Part shown: piece after piece, positions 27,677 to 41,767 of the stretch
How the letters are laid out: each line of letters opens with the position of its first letter
Numbering within the stretch: the first letter of the stretch is position 1
Origin: a virus
Strand: one strand, 5' to 3'
DNA: 44,283 bases
IMG/VR virus record: IMGVR_UViG_3300009421_000008
Location: 1-44,283 of that record
Made by a program: the position numbers and the translations under genes
The notes under the pieces: model-generated
What the model was told of the DNA's origin: nothing
What the model saw: the letters and a program-made list of their open reading frames with translations, nothing else
Database searches by the model: none

Positions 27677-28159
27677 ATGGAAAAATCTGCTTATCTGAGT
27701 GCCGACGGTAAATATAGATACAGTCTTTGGCGAAGGTGGGGAGAGACTCACAGAAATGTAATGTTTATAGGATTGAATCCTTCTACAGCCGATGCGCAAA
27801 ATGACGACCCTACTATCAGGCGTTGTGTAGGGTACGCAAAAGAATGGGGGTTCGATGCTTTGTCAATGACAAATCTTTATGCCTACAGATCGCCGTTTCC
27901 AGAAGGATTGTACGGCCCAGAAGATCCTGTTGGCTTCCATAATGATTTTGTGTTGAGAACTCAAGCTAAAAGAGCCGACCTTATTATTGCTGCTTGGGGC
28001 TCAATGGCAAAAATGTTTGGCAATAGACATGAACAGGTGGCTTCTATGATACCAAATTTACACTGTCTTAAATTGAATAAAGACGGAGCACCGGCGCACC
28101 CCCTGTACCTAAAAAAAGATTTAACGCCGTTTTTGTTTGCGGCTCCGGTTAGAGGGTGA
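27677..28159 (+). CDS. DUF1643-family protein
   Basis: YRYSLWRRW...MFIGLNPSTADAQNDDPTIRRCVGYAKEWGFDALSMTNLYAYRS matches my recollection of the DUF1643 signature. Confidence 0.65.
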   Translation: MEKSAYLSADGKYRYSLWRRWGETHRNVMFIGLNPSTADAQNDDPTIRRCVGYAKEWGFDALSMTNLYAYRSPFPEGLYGPEDPVGFHNDFVLRTQAKRADLIIAAWGSMAKMFGNRHEQVASMIPNLHCLKLNKDGAPAHPLYLKKDLTPFLFAAPVRG

Positions 28160-37024: not shown

Positions 37025-37274
37025 AATCATCGATGAATCCTACGCTGGGCTAGAAATCCATCAACTCTACATCGATGGCGGTAGAGCTGTAGCCGCTATT
37101 CGTAGACCGGGCCAACCGGTTGAATTATCTTGGCAAGTGTATGGCCCGCAATTCTGGCCAGATGCCCAGAAAATTATCCAAGGATTGGTACAGCTGTCTT
37201 TCATAGCTGATCAAATGCATTCAACAGGGAGAGTTTCAAATGCCGGCAAGAAAACAAGAGCCAAAAGAAAGTAG
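37014..37274 (+). CDS. Hypothetical protein (86 aa)
   Basis: GGGAGA N7 ATG at 37014. The track's TTG at 36972 is an alternative. Confidence 0.45.
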   Translation: MTIEIIDESYAGLEIHQLYIDGGRAVAAIRRPGQPVELSWQVYGPQFWPDAQKIIQGLVQLSFIADQMHSTGRVSNAGKKTRAKRK

Positions 37275-37923
37275 TTTGTCTCCGGGCGTGTTCTCAGATA
37301 AAAAACGGCATACCTGCATACTGTGCTCGTCGTCATCTGGCAAAGCGCAGTACATTCCGCTCTGCATAGCGGACGGCATGGTTGTGCGTGAAGTATCTGT
37401 AGATGAATTCCAAAACACTTGGAAAGCAATACCTGAGTATCCTCTTGATCGCGCAGCTGATTTGTATATCCAATACGCGCTAGACATTGGCGCTGAATCA
37501 GATGCCATCGACTATCTTTCAAAGATGACTAAGAACCAGAAAGAAGCGATTGCTAAGGTCAAAGCCAATGGCCCACGCGATGTCAAGCAAGTCATGCGTA
37601 AAAAATCAGGCCCCATGAGTCCAGCCGGTATGACAGAAGAAAAGGCAAGAGCTAAACCTTCAGGTCCACCACCAGTTTTTAAGGAGAACAAAAAGCAAGC
37701 GTCTAAGAAAGCGCCGGCTAAAAAGGCCGTAGGACCCAAGAAGCCGTCAGCAGCATCACGGTTTAGAGAGTTAATTATGGAGGGCAAGCTTAGCGATCAG
37801 CAGATCTTTGCTGCCGTCCAAAAGGAATTCGGCTTGGATGATAAGCGATTCACTTACGTTAAGTGGTACCGCGACAAGCTGCGCAAAGATGGATTGAACC
37901 CACCAGAAGCCAAGGAGAAATAG
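37240..37923 (+). CDS. Hypothetical protein with a Lys-rich linker and a C-terminal domain paralogous to the 36504..36920 product
   Basis: GGGAGAG N7 ATG. KKQASKKAPAKKAVGPKKPS linker, then SRFRELIMEGKLSDQQIFAAVQKEFGLDDKRFTYVKWYRDKLRK. Confidence 0.6.
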   Translation: MPARKQEPKESSLSPGVFSDKKRHTCILCSSSSGKAQYIPLCIADGMVVREVSVDEFQNTWKAIPEYPLDRAADLYIQYALDIGAESDAIDYLSKMTKNQKEAIAKVKANGPRDVKQVMRKKSGPMSPAGMTEEKARAKPSGPPPVFKENKKQASKKAPAKKAVGPKKPSAASRFRELIMEGKLSDQQIFAAVQKEFGLDDKRFTYVKWYRDKLRKDGLNPPEAKEK

Positions 37924-37924
37924 C

Positions 37925-38692
37925 ATGCCTAAAACACGGGAGATTTTAAGAGATGATAGGGATTACGATACAACACAGCTTCGAGAAGCCGGACACGGAC
38001 GTACACTTCACCGCGACTATTCAGCTCACTTCTGGCGATGGTCTTTCGCCCGACGATTTATCACACCTAAGGACAATGTGCTCGAAATTGGTTGCGGAGA
38101 AGACCGCCCGTTATCTAAAATCCTTACAGGTGGAGCTGCCGCAAGCGTCGGCCGGTATACTGGCGTGGACATCAATAAACTTAAGCCATCTCAGTCTCAG
38201 CGTCTCACCTTCCACGGGGAGTTTAATTTCGTCACAGAACACAAGAAGCTCTTGACTGGCGAGAACGCAGATGGGTTTGACGTAGTCGTGCATCTTGAAG
38301 TGATTGAGCACATGAAGGTGGAGCACGGCCGCAAGCTGCTTCGAAATGCATTCGCATGTTTGAAGCCGGGCGGAACGATGCTCATGTCTACCCCGTGCTA
38401 CGACGGTAAGCGGCATGCTGCTAACCATATTCATGAGTACACTGTTCCTGAGCTTCAGAAGGCTACTGAGAAGGCTGGCTTCGAAGTTGTGAAACGCTAC
38501 GGTGCATTCATGGACATCAAGCACATCGGCAAGAAAGACCGCAGCAACAATGAGTGTACCGATGCTGCCATTACCGAGGTGTACCAAGCGCTCAGGGAGT
38601 ATTACGACAACGATGCACTGAGCTGCTTCTTTGCTCCGCTGTATCCTGACAACGCCCGCAACAACTTGTGGGTTTGCCGCAAACCAAATTAA
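37925..38692 (+). CDS. Class I SAM-dependent methyltransferase (substrate unknown)
   Basis: Motif I VLEIGCGEDRP, then VVVHLEVIEHM and LKPGGTMLMSTP. I found no DPPY/NPPY or PC/ENV DNA-methyltransferase motifs. Confidence 0.7.
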   Translation: MPKTREILRDDRDYDTTQLREAGHGRTLHRDYSAHFWRWSFARRFITPKDNVLEIGCGEDRPLSKILTGGAAASVGRYTGVDINKLKPSQSQRLTFHGEFNFVTEHKKLLTGENADGFDVVVHLEVIEHMKVEHGRKLLRNAFACLKPGGTMLMSTPCYDGKRHAANHIHEYTVPELQKATEKAGFEVVKRYGAFMDIKHIGKKDRSNNECTDAAITEVYQALREYYDNDALSCFFAPLYPDNARNNLWVCRKPN

Positions 38693-38702
38693 GGAGAAAT
38701 CA

Positions 38703-39134
38703 ATGAGAAAGAATTTTGATGACGTGCGTGAATTGCACGAGAGTTTTGCTATTGCCGTCAACGACACACCGCATCTGTTGTGTCGTCGGTTAGCCCAAGA
38801 GCGGATAGATTTCATTGGTGAAGAACTCGATGAATTGTACGATGCCATGAGTGCTGACGACATCAACGAAATAGCCGATGCGCTGATCGACATTGTGGTC
38901 GTTGCTATGGGCACTGCGGCTATGATGGGCCTCCCGTGGCAAGAACTGTGGGACGACGTGCATCGCGCCAACATGGCTAAGGAGCGAGGAGTAGGGAAGC
39001 GAGGCAATGCAGTCGACCTCATCAAGCCTGAGGGCTGGGTGCCGCCTCACACACGAGATATTCTGCAAGAAGCGGGGTATAACTTTGACAATCCACCGGA
39101 GCCTCATGATGACAGACGCACAAAGATTTCCTGA
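38703..39134 (+). CDS. MazG-like all-alpha nucleoside triphosphate pyrophosphohydrolase
   Basis: AAGGAG N7 ATG. IDFIGEELDELYDA...EIADALIDIVVVAMG gives the EExxE...D metal-binding helices. Confidence 0.65.
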   Translation: MRKNFDDVRELHESFAIAVNDTPHLLCRRLAQERIDFIGEELDELYDAMSADDINEIADALIDIVVVAMGTAAMMGLPWQELWDDVHRANMAKERGVGKRGNAVDLIKPEGWVPPHTRDILQEAGYNFDNPPEPHDDRRTKIS

Positions 39135-39642
39135 GAAGCAAATCGTAATCTTTGAAGGTTGCGATTGCACTGGCAAGACCACCGCTGCCAAGGCCTACGC
39201 GGCAGCGACTGGGGCCGATTACATCCACAACGGGCCGTATTTGGGCAAGACCGGGTCTGAGCTGTTTAACGTTTATTTTAATCAGATGGAATTCTCTAGA
39301 CTCAACGACATTCCAGTTGTCATTGATCGTTGTTGGGTCAGTGAGAATATTTACGGACGGGTGCTGCGCGGAGGATCTAGGTTATCTCCTGACCAGACAA
39401 CTGAGTTACTCGAAATGGCAGAGCATTTAGACGTTGAATTCATCGTCTGCGACCCTGGGTTAGACCAAGTTAAAAACACTTGGTTATCTCGCCGACAAAC
39501 TGAGCTGGTAGTGGATACTGAGAACCTTGAGAAGGTTTGGAATTATTACTCTGCGCTTGGTAATGCCAGGGCAAAGATTTACGACTGGCTCGAGTTCAAG
39601 GACTGCTCGATGGATGACCTTATCAACTTCATAGAGGATTAA
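39106..39642 (+). CDS. Thymidylate-kinase-like dNMP kinase
   Basis: P-loop IVIFEGCDCTGKTT and the downstream VVIDR motif, as in the TMK family. The start is at ATG 39106 or 39109. Confidence 0.6.
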   Translation: MMTDAQRFPEKQIVIFEGCDCTGKTTAAKAYAAATGADYIHNGPYLGKTGSELFNVYFNQMEFSRLNDIPVVIDRCWVSENIYGRVLRGGSRLSPDQTTELLEMAEHLDVEFIVCDPGLDQVKNTWLSRRQTELVVDTENLEKVWNYYSALGNARAKIYDWLEFKDCSMDDLINFIED

Positions 39643-39645
39643 AAC

Positions 39646-40449
39646 ATGTTTGACACAAATAGAAGCTACATCGAAACTGCGGACGCCGTCATTGCGTACG
39701 GAGGCGGGGTTAACCCACGGGGGCAAGGCACTGTGGAAGTTATTGGTCATCAGACAGCGGTAAATATGAGGAAGCCTATTATCACGCTGCCAAGTCGTGC
39801 GCTTAACTACCAATTCATGTTTGCAGAGGCCGCTTGGATTCTGAGAGGTGATGACAGTCTAGCGCCTTTGGTTAAACACATCAACAGGATGAAAGACTTC
39901 AGTGACGACGGTGAAACGCTGTCTGGCGCTTACGGCCCACGTTACGTCGATCAACGCGACTATGTTTTGGATGCCTTACTGAGTGATCCTACAACTCGGC
40001 AGGCTGGTTTGACATTGTGGAAACCCAGTCCTACGCCAAGTAAAGATATACCATGCACCCTTGCACTGTGGTTCTTAATCCGAGAAGGCCACTTGTGGGT
40101 ACATGCTTTCATGCGGAGTAGCGACGTTTGGCTGGGGTTGCCGTACGACATCTTCAGCTTCAGTATGATAGGCCATGACATTTGTGCACGGTATAACTTA
40201 AACAACGGCGGCGAAACCATCAAGCCGGGCGGTTTAATTATCTCTGCCGCGTCGACCCACGTGTATGACAGAGATGCCGACCTCGTTAAGAACATGGTCA
40301 AAGAGTCTACGGAGTATAGGAATAGGCCACTACAGTTGGAAACACCCAGCGCGTTGCACACAGACCCGATGTTCCTGATGCACTGGCTTGAGGACACATC
40401 CAATGATCCTGAAGCCGCCAGAAACTGCTGGAAAGTTGATGGGATCTAG
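39646..40449 (+). CDS. ThyA-family pyrimidine-C5 transferase with Asp at the Asn177 position; predicted dCMP hydroxymethylase or dCMP methyltransferase rather than thymidylate synthase
   Basis: It aligns to E. coli ThyA: PRGQGT / DRTGTGT; AEAAWIL / HELLWFL; DIPCTLALWF / LAPCHAFFQF (Cys137, 40054-40056); MRSSDVWLGLPYDIFSF / YQRSCDVFLGLPFNIASY (Asp168, 40147-40149). The Cys-to-Asp spacing is 31 residues, the same as C146-N177. Confidence 0.65.
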   Translation: MFDTNRSYIETADAVIAYGGGVNPRGQGTVEVIGHQTAVNMRKPIITLPSRALNYQFMFAEAAWILRGDDSLAPLVKHINRMKDFSDDGETLSGAYGPRYVDQRDYVLDALLSDPTTRQAGLTLWKPSPTPSKDIPCTLALWFLIREGHLWVHAFMRSSDVWLGLPYDIFSFSMIGHDICARYNLNNGGETIKPGGLIISAASTHVYDRDADLVKNMVKESTEYRNRPLQLETPSALHTDPMFLMHWLEDTSNDPEAARNCWKVDGI

Positions 40450-40936
40450 AATCTCAACCTACGCATGGTTATCTGAGATGGCACAGATAACTGCCAAGAG
40501 ATCTACGTGTGCACGCCGTCAGGTCGGTTGTGTTCTTGTGGACTGGCATAATAAGGTTCTATCTACGGGGTACAACGGCACGCCGGTGGGTTTCAAGAAC
40601 TGCTCAGAGGCTCGTGCACGAGACGGAGGTGGTCTGGTGTGCTCTGCCAGAAACTCTCCTTCTGGAGAAGATCTTGGTGGGTGCCACGCCGTGCATGCGG
40701 AACAGAACGCGCTGCTCCAGTGCCCGGATGTTAACACAATCAAGACCTGCTTTGTCACGACCAGCCCGTGTGTCCACTGTGTGAAGATGCTACTCAACAC
40801 ATCTTGTGATCAAATAGTTTTCTTAGAACCTTACGCTCATGAAGCAACTTCTCGAGAGCTGTGGTTGAGCTCTCCTATAGAGAGACACTGGAAGTTCTGG
40901 GCACTAGAAGGATACGAGCTGTCTGGCAGAAACTAA
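40439..40936 (+). CDS. dCMP deaminase (cytidine/deoxycytidylate deaminase zinc-binding family)
   Basis: AKRSTCARRQVGCVLVD, HAEQNAL and PCVHCVKML. Start at ATG 40439, overlapping the upstream gene's end. Confidence 0.8.
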   Translation: MGSRISTYAWLSEMAQITAKRSTCARRQVGCVLVDWHNKVLSTGYNGTPVGFKNCSEARARDGGGLVCSARNSPSGEDLGGCHAVHAEQNALLQCPDVNTIKTCFVTTSPCVHCVKMLLNTSCDQIVFLEPYAHEATSRELWLSSPIERHWKFWALEGYELSGRN

Positions 40937-41020: not shown

Positions 41021-41054
41021 ATAAGAAAAACCCAAGGCCTTTCAGCCCCGGGTT
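41021..41054 (-). terminator. Rho-independent terminator ending the minus-strand arm
   Basis: Minus strand: AACCCGGGGC-TGAAAG-GCCTTGGGTT (10 bp including two G.U pairs that form only in this orientation), running into TTTTTCTTAT. Confidence 0.6.
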
Positions 41055-41117: not shown

Positions 41118-41495
41118 TCAAGGATCTCGCTTGGGCCAAGGGTCTCTCTTGCCGCCCGAATATTGTCTAGCCAGCCCTTTGTCAATCATCACAGCCGACA
41201 GCTCTCGCCCGTCTTTAAGTGTGATTGTGGCAATGAACCTTCCGTACTTGCCAGTTTTATCCTTGAACGTCTGGATATGGTCGATGCCGTCAGACGTAAG
41301 GAGGCGGGCGTAGTCCGTAGCCTCATTGTAGAACATGTCGCCGCGCTCAGGAGTGTCGTGGTTTGCACACCTGAATTGGGCCTTGCGCAGCACATCCATC
41401 CCCAGATCCATCAGAGCATTGAACGTGTCGCCGTCTACCCAGCGCGTGATTTCAACGTGCCAATAGATAAACTTCATGTTTTCTTGGCCGCTCAT
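41118..41495 (-). CDS. Staphylococcal-nuclease-like (SNase/thermonuclease) protein
   Basis: WVDGDTF, RCANHDTPE, GKYGRFIATI and IDKGLA match the SNase core motifs. ATGA overlap with the upstream gene at 41495. Confidence 0.7.
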   Translation of the reverse strand: MSGQENMKFIYWHVEITRWVDGDTFNALMDLGMDVLRKAQFRCANHDTPERGDMFYNEATDYARLLTSDGIDHIQTFKDKTGKYGRFIATITLKDGRELSAVMIDKGLARQYSGGKRDPWPKRDP

Positions 41496-41767
41496 TTCTG
41501 TAACCACCTTGGCCATTTGGCTAACCAGCCGAACGCGTCAACTGCGGCGAAATATACTTTGGCTACAGCTCTCCACGCCCGGTCTCTTACTGCTGCGCAC
41601 AAGCAGCATTCTTTGAACTCATGATCAGATAGCGCTCTGGCTTTAGTTGGATTTTTGTAGTCCTCGTCGTGCTGCTTACAACAGGCGTTGAACTTTTGGC
41701 TCAACCATTTCCGTAACCATTTTGGCCACCCCTGCGGCCCACAGTAATAAGGTGGTTTTATGCCCAT
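41492..41767 (-). CDS. Small protein with secreted-phospholipase-A2-like motifs
   Basis: 91 aa. YYCGPQG resembles the Ca-loop YCGxGG. ACCKQHDEDY matches the catalytic CCxxHDxxY (His-Asp at 41666-41671). Further Cys residues at ECCLC. The ATG is 1 nt after the o-spanin stop. Confidence 0.5.
   Translation of the reverse strand: MGIKPPYYCGPQGWPKWLRKWLSQKFNACCKQHDEDYKNPTKARALSDHEFKECCLCAAVRDRAWRAVAKVYFAAVDAFGWLAKWPRWLQK

Follow-up and report, generated by a model that had tools for sequence, protein, structure and literature searches.

A viral thymidylate synthase homologue predicted to hydroxymethylate deoxycytidylate

The thymidylate synthase homologue and its active site

We analyzed 44,283 nucleotides of viral DNA (IMG/VR record IMGVR_UViG_3300009421_000008, positions 1 to 44,283; hereafter the window), with a focus on a homologue of thymidylate synthase (TS) encoded on the plus strand at 39646-40449. 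The gene belongs to a cassette of tightly packed or overlapping genes that encode, in order, a protein of unknown function, a methyltransferase, a pyrophosphohydrolase, a kinase, the TS homologue and a deaminase. Its open reading frame (ORF) starts with an ATG at 39646, with the stop of the preceding gene 4 nt before it and an AGAGGA ribosome-binding site 8 nt upstream, and ends with a TAG at 40447-40449. The 267-residue product scores 82.2 bits against the Pfam profile PF00303 (Thymidylat_synt; cutoff 24.3), which places it in the superfamily and confirms the ThyA homologue that a first-pass annotation had called at this position. An AlphaFold2 model of the protein (pLDDT 93.8) is matched by Foldseek to TS structures and to those of MilA, a CMP 5-hydroxymethylase, with TMq values of 0.71-0.80. 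On the strength of the PF00303 match, the MilA matches and the model, we annotate the protein as a TS-fold enzyme predicted to be a deoxycytidine monophosphate (dCMP) C5-hydroxymethylase, that is, a 5-hydroxymethyl-dCMP synthase. The kind of enzyme is already known, and the protein is a new member of that kind.

To assign active-site residues, three alignments that agree with one another were used, namely a phmmer alignment to E. coli ThyA, a MAFFT alignment with reference enzymes and a profile hidden Markov model (HMM) of 47 family members, and the codons were read directly. Inspection of these alignments reveals that Pro136-Cys137 is aligned with E. coli Pro145-Cys146, and that the catalytic Cys137 (tgc, 40054-40056) together with Thr138 (acc; the pair spans 40054-40059) corresponds to E. 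coli Cys146 and His147. Further along the chain, R157-S-S-D160-V-W-L-G-L-P-Y-D168-I aligns with E. coli R166-S-C-D169-V-F-L-G-L-P-F-N177-I. Within this segment, Asp160 (40123-40125) retains E. coli Asp169 in the MAFFT and family alignments, and Asp168 (gac, 40147-40149) is the equivalent of E. coli Asn177 and of Asp179 in the dCMP hydroxymethylase of phage T4 (T4 dCH, gp42), the position that sets which pyrimidine is accepted. The distance from the catalytic Cys to this Asp is 31 residues, the same as in E. coli. Three residues before the Cys (Cys-3), Asp134 (gat, 40045-40047) aligns with T4 dCH Asp145, with an Asp of MilA and with E. coli Leu143 in the MAFFT and family-HMM alignments. The phmmer alignment had instead put Ile135 at the Leu143 position, with a gap beside the Cys; this placement was rejected, as MAFFT and the family profile both move the gap into a loop and bring Asp134 opposite Leu143.

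These assignments bear out what the first-pass annotation had read from the letters, namely a catalytic Cys137 in a PC pair, an RSxDxxLGLP-type motif, an unchanged spacing of 31 between the Cys and the Asn/Asp position, Asp168 as the Asn177 equivalent, and PCT in place of PCH. The comparison that it had proposed with T4 gp42, the enzyme of phage Xp12 and ThyA was run with MAFFT and the family HMM and again puts Asp168 at the Asn177 position, equivalent to T4 Asp179; none of the alignments places another residue there.

The family to which the protein belongs shows very little variation at these positions. No substitution of C137, T138, D160 or D168 occurs in the 47-sequence family alignment, and the equivalents of the catalytic Cys, Glu58, Tyr94, Arg21, Arg166, His207 and Tyr209 (C137, E61, Y96, R25, R157, H205 and Y207) are likewise invariant. 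Asp occupies the Asn177 position in 78/78 IMG/VR relatives matched by a motif scan and in two others judged by inspection. In all, C137, T138 and D168 are unchanged across more than 120 relatives. Since it is invariant in the 47 sequences and found in essentially all 80 IMG/VR relatives, the change from Asn177 to Asp is a fixed property of the family and not noise. Asp134 is similarly conserved, being present in 47/47 family sequences and in 79 of the 80 IMG/VR relatives (77 by motif scan and 2 by eye). S158 and R118 are invariant and are residues of the deoxy type, as found in TS (Ser167, Arg126) and T4 dCH. The MAFFT and family-HMM alignments further indicate that Trp80 is deleted, as it is in MilA, and that the C-terminus bears no relation to the tail of TS. 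Next to Arg118, the second residue of the pair Arg118-Gln119 (39997-40002) is Gln throughout the family, at a position taken by Arg in ThyA, T4 dCH, MilA and the Xp12 enzyme (E. coli Arg127, the second Arg of a phosphate-binding Arg-Arg pair).

Given this active site, the protein is very probably an enzyme that modifies cytosine nucleotides at C5. Cytosine specificity is supported by Asp168 together with the loss of His147, by the failure to reach ThyA cutoffs, by MilA as the nearest characterized enzyme, by a dCTPase/kinase/deaminase cassette like those reported in cytosine-modified phages, and by the resistance of DNA from Stenotrophomonas phage AXL3, which carries the same cassette. Asp in place of Asn177 is a diagnostic already published and in wide use. 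In the MetaGPA study (eLife 2021, PMC8670742), the residues that best set apart the TS homologues on cytosine-modified phage contigs are those at E. coli positions 177 and 147, with Asp instead of Asn177 in this set, and the study of MilA reports Asn in TS and in the SPO1 dUMP hydroxymethylase and Asp in MilA, BcmA and T4 dCH (PMC5175136). The precedents cited by the first-pass annotation, T4 Asp179 and a TS Asn-to-Asp mutant acting as a dCMP methylase, are both found in the literature (PMC8670742, PMC6400193, PMC5175136). A later preprint from the group behind MetaGPA reports that dCMP deaminase genes on modified contigs adjoin a TS homologue in 70% of cases, with PRA-PH and family-A polymerase genes among the commonest neighbors.

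As a ThyA, the protein fails on several counts. It scores 33.5-66.9 bits against the NCBIfam thymidylate synthase equivalogs, below every one of their cutoffs (108-405 bits), and it has Asp168 for Asn177, Asp134 for the hydrophobic Leu143, and neither Trp80 nor the C-terminal tail. The DNA of AXL3 withstands 35 of 37 restriction enzymes; each of these 35 has G/C in its site, while the two that cut have A/T-only sites. Public records name AXL3 gp28 'thymidylate synthase' and the orthologue in Pseudoxanthomonas phage PW916 'deoxyuridylate hydroxymethyltransferase'; with Asp invariant at the Asn177 position both names are unlikely, and they are probably wrong.

The reaction product

Our preferred assignment, which we hold to be probable, is that the TS homologue is a dCMP hydroxymethylase making 5-hydroxymethyl-dCMP; the phage may, as the most likely use, employ this nucleotide to replace cytosine in its DNA. 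In a ternary-complex study of T4 dCH, Asp145 at Cys-3 activates the substrate water and a D145N enzyme gives no 5-hydroxymethyl-dCMP, and a hydroxymethylase signature was proposed that combines Asp/Glu at Cys-3 with Ser/Thr-x-Tyr (PMC6400193). At Cys-3, the protein shares Asp with T4 dCH and MilA; the residue there is Asn in the dCMP methylases of phages Xp12 and PaMx74, and Leu in ThyA. The residue after the catalytic Cys is Thr in the protein, T4 dCH and MilA, Pro in the two methylases and His in ThyA. The protein combines three of the features looked for in a deoxycytidylate hydroxymethylase: Asp168 for cytosine recognition, an acidic residue at Cys-3, and the deoxy-selecting pair Ser158 and Arg118.

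Overall similarity leans the same way. By BLAST, MilA is the nearest characterized enzyme at 36% identity versus 25% for the Xp12 enzyme and E. coli ThyA, and the family HMM gives 105 bits to MilA, 84 bits to Xp12 and 39 bits to T4 gp42. MilA is also the best match by sequence in the Protein Data Bank (PDB; E 1e-21) and accounts for all of the top seven Foldseek matches (TMq 0.76-0.80). The protein has neither the Trp80 nor the C-terminal tail of the form 'YNPxPEV(I/V)E' that are found in the enzymes of Xp12 and PaMx74.

The cofactor economy of the locus was examined through dihydrofolate reductase (DHFR). No DHFR was detected in the 44-kb window by tblastn with three DHFRs or by Pfam searches of 30 window ORFs, and none in 80 loci fetched by the TS homologue or in 80 fetched by the methyltransferase, two sets that overlap. 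In contrast, a DHFR gene adjoins the deaminase gene in Xp12 and PaMx74, and DHFR is reported for each of the eight Pamexvirus genomes. This absence speaks against a methylase because a methylase oxidises one folate per cytosine. The first-pass annotation had stated that the sequence alone cannot tell 5-hydroxymethyl-dCMP from 5-methyl-dCMP, which now appears too pessimistic, as the Asp at Cys-3, the missing tail, the lack of DHFR and the neighbors in sister cassettes would all point to hydroxymethylation.

In the reaction that we propose, Cys137 would attack C6 of dCMP, and Asp168 would read and protonate the N3/N4 face of cytosine, where an Asn would select uracil. A one-carbon unit would then be transferred from 5,10-methylene-tetrahydrofolate to C5 with the help of Glu61 and Tyr96. 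No hydride would be drawn from the folate; rather, water activated by Asp134 would attack the exocyclic methylene intermediate to give 5-hydroxymethyl-dCMP and tetrahydrofolate.

Several points weigh against a hydroxymethyl product. The Ser/Thr-x-Tyr half of the signature is missing, as the protein reads S93-G94-A95-Y96 (family consensus G-A-Y) where MilA has T-A-Y and T4 has S-N-Y. Gln119 is invariant at the position of Arg127, a phosphate ligand of ThyA. An acidic residue at Cys-3 is insufficient alone, given that 5-hydroxy-dCMP is the product of the RB69 and DLP3 enzymes, in which this residue is Glu (PMC13326640). Five of seven deaminase-linked TS homologues in one screen made 5-methyl-dCMP (preprint), and the PRA-PH/TS/deaminase arrangement of the window is common to Xp12 and PaMx74, whose DNA contains 5-methylcytosine (5mC). 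The window carries no Asn-type ThyA, and no ThyX was found in it by tblastn with the AXL3 ThyX or by Pfam on the 30 ORFs, which a route from 5mC to T would account for neatly. Some relatives encode C5 DNA-methylase homologues, and the product is assigned from sequence for the clade as a whole.

Several of these points would favor an Xp12-type dCMP methylase, in which hydride transfer from folate would give 5-methyl-dCMP and dihydrofolate and the deaminase would turn part of the 5-methyl-dC pool into thymidine nucleotides, a conversion described for 5mC phages (preprint). The change of Asn177 to Asp alone converts TS into a dCMP methylase, and such an enzyme fits the gene order of Xp12 and PaMx74, the outcome of the seven-enzyme screen, the incomplete signature and the lack of a thymidylate synthase of either type. 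We nevertheless rate the methylase as unlikely, if well worth retaining as a competitor. Asp at Cys-3 is invariant in the family and Thr follows the Cys, as against Asn and Pro in the two natural methylases known, the TS-like tail and Trp80 that both of these keep are lacking, identity to the Xp12 enzyme is 25% versus 36% to MilA, DHFR is missing from the genome and from related loci, and one sister cassette contains a kinase domain that requires a hydroxymethyl group.

The remaining alternatives differ in the chemistry or in the substrate. A 5-hydroxy-dCMP synthase of the RB69/DLP3/RL38J1 type, which would hydroxylate C5 of dCMP directly in preparation for glycosylation, also has Asp for Asn177 together with an acidic residue in place of Leu143. 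We consider it very improbable, since such synthases are marked by a change of Asp169 to Asn (PMC13326640) whereas D160 is invariant in the family, and no glycosyltransferase was present among the scanned window ORFs. A uracil-directed enzyme, either a thymidylate synthase or a dUMP hydroxymethylase supplied with dUMP by the deaminase as in SPO1-type phages, would match the public annotations (AXL3 gp28 and most database relatives, and PW916 as a dUMP hydroxymethylase). Phages with 5-hydroxymethyldeoxyuridine (5-hmdU) also have a layout of dCMP deaminase, nucleoside triphosphate (NTP) pyrophosphatase and kinase. This explanation has next to no probability in our estimate, given the invariant Asp at a position where TS and the SPO1 dUMP hydroxymethylase keep Asn, scores far under every ThyA equivalog cutoff, the loss of His147, and AXL3 DNA that is cut by enzymes with A/T-only sites and resists those with G/C in their sites. 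An equally slim chance is given to a CMP hydroxymethylase like MilA or BcmA that would serve a nucleoside-type product or RNA modification and not DNA. MilA is indeed the closest characterized relative by both sequence and structure, but its ribo preference stems from Ala176 and Lys133, and an A176S/K133R double mutant loses CMP activity (PMC5175136). These residues are Ser158 and Arg118 in the protein, as in TS and T4 dCH, so that a deoxyribo rather than a ribo substrate is indicated; in addition, the genomic setting is a phage replication module, with a DNA polymerase gene close by and a dCMP deaminase gene adjoining.

The cassette, its methyltransferase and the phage genome

To place the dCMP hydroxymethylase candidate in context, cassette genes were counted in the window and 86 further loci (87 sequences), among them 80 IMG/VR loci fetched with family motifs. 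The cassette opens on the plus strand with a 227-residue protein of unknown function (37240-37923; no Pfam match, phrog_17205) directly upstream of the methyltransferase, and a homologue of it occurs in 74/87 sequences, Xp12 and PaMx74 included. The first enzyme gene encodes a 255-residue class I S-adenosylmethionine (SAM)-dependent methyltransferase (37925-38692, plus strand; Methyltransf_23, E 5e-18). It is followed on the same strand by a 143-residue MazG-like/PRA-PH NTP pyrophosphohydrolase (38703-39134; PF01503, E 2e-16; phrog_671; the MazG-like NTP-PPase DR2231 in the PDB, E 1e-9), which is 39-40% identical to the proteins beside the TS homologue in Xp12 and PaMx74 and was found in 77/87 sequences.

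A 177-residue P-loop kinase (39109-39642, plus strand) precedes the TS homologue. It matches phrog_761 'thymidylate kinase' (E 4e-13), with Pfam and NCBIfam recognizing the P-loop only, and is found in 52/87 sequences. The window kinase has no HMUDK helical domain, and a nucleotide kinase and a DNA kinase are indistinguishable from the P-loop alone. It shares 35% identity with the N-terminal half of AXL3 gp29, and matches only the N-terminal ~146 residues of the ~320-340-residue kinases in AXL3 and many relatives (AXL3 gp29 is L003:5019-6002 in our locus numbering). Beyond this shared part, AXL3 gp29 has an additional C-terminal domain in which the stretches 'IVGEDFGEH' and 'VPHPQYW' may recall uracil-DNA-glycosylase family motifs.

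Downstream, a zinc deaminase of the dCMP deaminase family (40403-40936, plus strand; ATG at 40403 or 40439), whose gene begins before the TS gene has ended, is supported by PF00383 (E 2e-17), phrog_174 and PDB 2hvv (E 6e-15), as well as T4 Cd. A deaminase gene follows the TS homologue in 84/87 sequences. The cassette ends at an 11-bp GC-rich hairpin with a T-run (41029-41054, minus strand) that lies between the convergent deaminase and nuclease genes. The latter encodes a staphylococcal-nuclease-like protein (41118-41516, minus strand; PF00565, E 4e-7) that may be a nuclease for unmodified host DNA. The same cassette order is seen in AXL3, PW916, MW202621 and most of the 80 IMG/VR loci. The family is large: in IMG/VR, no fewer than 496 viral contigs match its motifs, and 935 clusters were obtained in a protein search (E <= 1e-10).

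These genes suggest how a modified nucleotide could reach DNA. The MazG-like pyrophosphatase would turn dCTP into dCMP, which would both remove a competitor and supply the substrate, and the P-loop kinase would phosphorylate the modified monophosphate. Incorporation of the modified base into DNA would next involve host nucleoside diphosphate kinase and the family-A polymerase of the phage. The deaminase would supply dUMP for host thymidylate synthesis or deaminate part of the modified pool, and the SAM methyltransferase may further tailor the product.

No other cassette gene is as well conserved as the methyltransferase, which is 60-80% identical across relatives whose TS homologues are 40-48% identical and is found in 69/87 sequences. 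Conversely, a TS homologue is present in 72/72 IMG/VR methyltransferase loci that have at least 3 kb of downstream sequence. The methyltransferase is absent from the 5mC phages Xp12 and PaMx74. It has an invariant His-rich motif, R163-H-A-A-N-H-I-H-E171, and weakly resembles O-methyltransferases of small molecules and of the tRNA wobble position. Searches of PDB sequences, NCBIfam and homologues, together with an AlphaFold2 model and Foldseek, returned only generic class I matches (SpnF, RebM, CmoM, UbiG), from which no substrate can be inferred.

Relatives without this methyltransferase carry other genes in its slot. This place is taken in one of them by a 5-hmdU-DNA-kinase helical domain (PF18723, E 1e-43), and in five loci by a three-gene module that includes a pyridoxal-phosphate (PLP)-dependent enzyme (phrog_7093); sister modules of these kinds lie at L060:5803-6636, L070:3069-6120, L085:3763-6823 and L081:9106-11970. 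The KD(I/V)PCT and PYD motifs of the TS homologue are unchanged in relatives with the kinase domain or the PLP module. The genes in the sister slot favor a hydroxymethyl product because such enzyme types are known from the hypermodification of hydroxymethyl-pyrimidines, and the overall pattern suggests interchangeable tailoring modules around one TS-homologue core.

As a tentative proposal, to which we attach rather low confidence, the methyltransferase could be a dedicated tailoring enzyme that, for example, O-methylates the 5-hydroxymethyl-cytosine nucleotide or base to 5-methoxymethyl-cytosine, an undescribed hypermodification in AXL3-like phages. Its linkage in all 72 loci, its top conservation and the replacement of its slot by enzymes of hypermodification type argue for such a role, and DNA methylases that fill the same slot in some relatives argue against it. 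Alternatively, the methyltransferase may be unrelated to the modification, with for instance a host molecule as its target, and travel with the cassette. A literature search found no methoxymethyl-cytosine modification, and none characterized for AXL3, PW916 or Pelagibacter phage relatives. This tightly linked methyltransferase is the sole potentially novel element of the locus.

Some relatives also have divergent homologues of C5-cytosine DNA methylases (PF00145, E 1e-12 to 1e-19; 343-483 residues) inserted in their cassettes, sometimes alongside the Methyltransf_23 gene (L020:5110-6465, L022:5212-6558, L064:5446-6555, L067:1742-2788, L075:4308-5339 and L078:6514-7965). The role of a C5 DNA methylase is puzzling in a phage expected to carry C5-substituted cytosines.

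The window as a whole has a G+C content of 48.9%, with structural and lysis genes grouped on the minus strand and replication genes on the plus strand. The replication block encodes a primase-helicase, a DUF1643 protein, a family-A DNA polymerase, a PD-(D/E)XK nuclease and an SNF2 helicase. The DUF1643 protein (27677-28159, plus strand; E 5e-43) has a counterpart in AXL3 gp55. A megablast search of the phage collection returned no near-identical DNA, a tRNA gene scan found none, and promoter-like matches were no more frequent than expected by chance.

Significance and comparison with known systems

Phages that replace cytosine evade restriction enzymes and many CRISPR nucleases, and their enzymes are now tools for epigenetic sequencing. 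The enzyme described here is one of a large branch of TS homologues that are MilA-like and cytosine-directed; the branch is found in siphoviruses that include cultured phage-therapy candidates against Stenotrophomonas, and its members are routinely mis-annotated as thymidylate synthase. With the product firmly assigned, the refractory AXL3 DNA would be accounted for, many annotations could be corrected, and the predictive value of the published residue rules would be put to the test. If the methyltransferase does act on the product, the cassette could reveal a new DNA base.

Of the characterized enzymes, MilA from Streptomyces rimofaciens (PDB 5b6d, 5jnh, 5jp9) is the most similar, with 36% identity over 202 residues and TMq up to 0.80. 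The two share the motif xDxxCTLALxFLIR(D/E), Asp at the Asn177 position and the deletion of Trp80, and MilA uses methylene-tetrahydrofolate to make a hydroxymethyl product, as is predicted for the viral enzyme. In contrast, MilA is a bacterial antibiotic-pathway enzyme of 325 residues with another C-terminal region, and prefers CMP through Ala176 and Lys133 where the viral enzyme has Ser and Arg. T4 gp42 (PDB 1b5d; PMC6400193) resembles the viral enzyme in its predicted reaction and role, in Asp179, in the Asp at Cys-3, in the Thr after the Cys and in the lack of a TS tail, and it likewise has a dCTPase, a dNMP kinase and a dCMP deaminase as partners. Identity between them is limited to 27% over 118 residues, and T4 gp42 keeps Trp82 and Ser94-x-Tyr96, with Gly at the Ser position in the viral family. 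Unlike the single operon of the window, the T4 genes are scattered, and glucosyltransferases are added to the pathway.

Phages Xp12 and PaMx74 (Pamexvirus group), which have 5mC for C in their DNA, share with the window an Asp at the Asn177 position, a siphovirus replication module, the pyrophosphohydrolase/TS/deaminase order, and homologues of the pyrophosphohydrolase and of the upstream protein of unknown function. Their TS homologues are 25-28% identical to the viral enzyme and differ from it by Asn at Cys-3, Pro at Cys+1, and the presence of Trp80 and a TS-like tail; their cassettes have DHFR beside the deaminase, and lack both the Methyltransf_23 gene and the P-loop kinase. The closest cultured relatives by TS homologue are AXL3 and PW916, and the best match overall is the uncultured siphovirus MW202621 at 44% identity. 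AXL3 differs from the window in its G+C content (~63% versus 49%), its ThyX, and its longer kinase with an extra C-terminal domain. Despite these differences, AXL3 (gp27-gp31) and PW916 contain the same five-gene cassette in the same order as the window, with TS homologues that are 39-40% identical and preserve KD(V/I)PCT and PYD, and with methyltransferases that are 75-76% identical.

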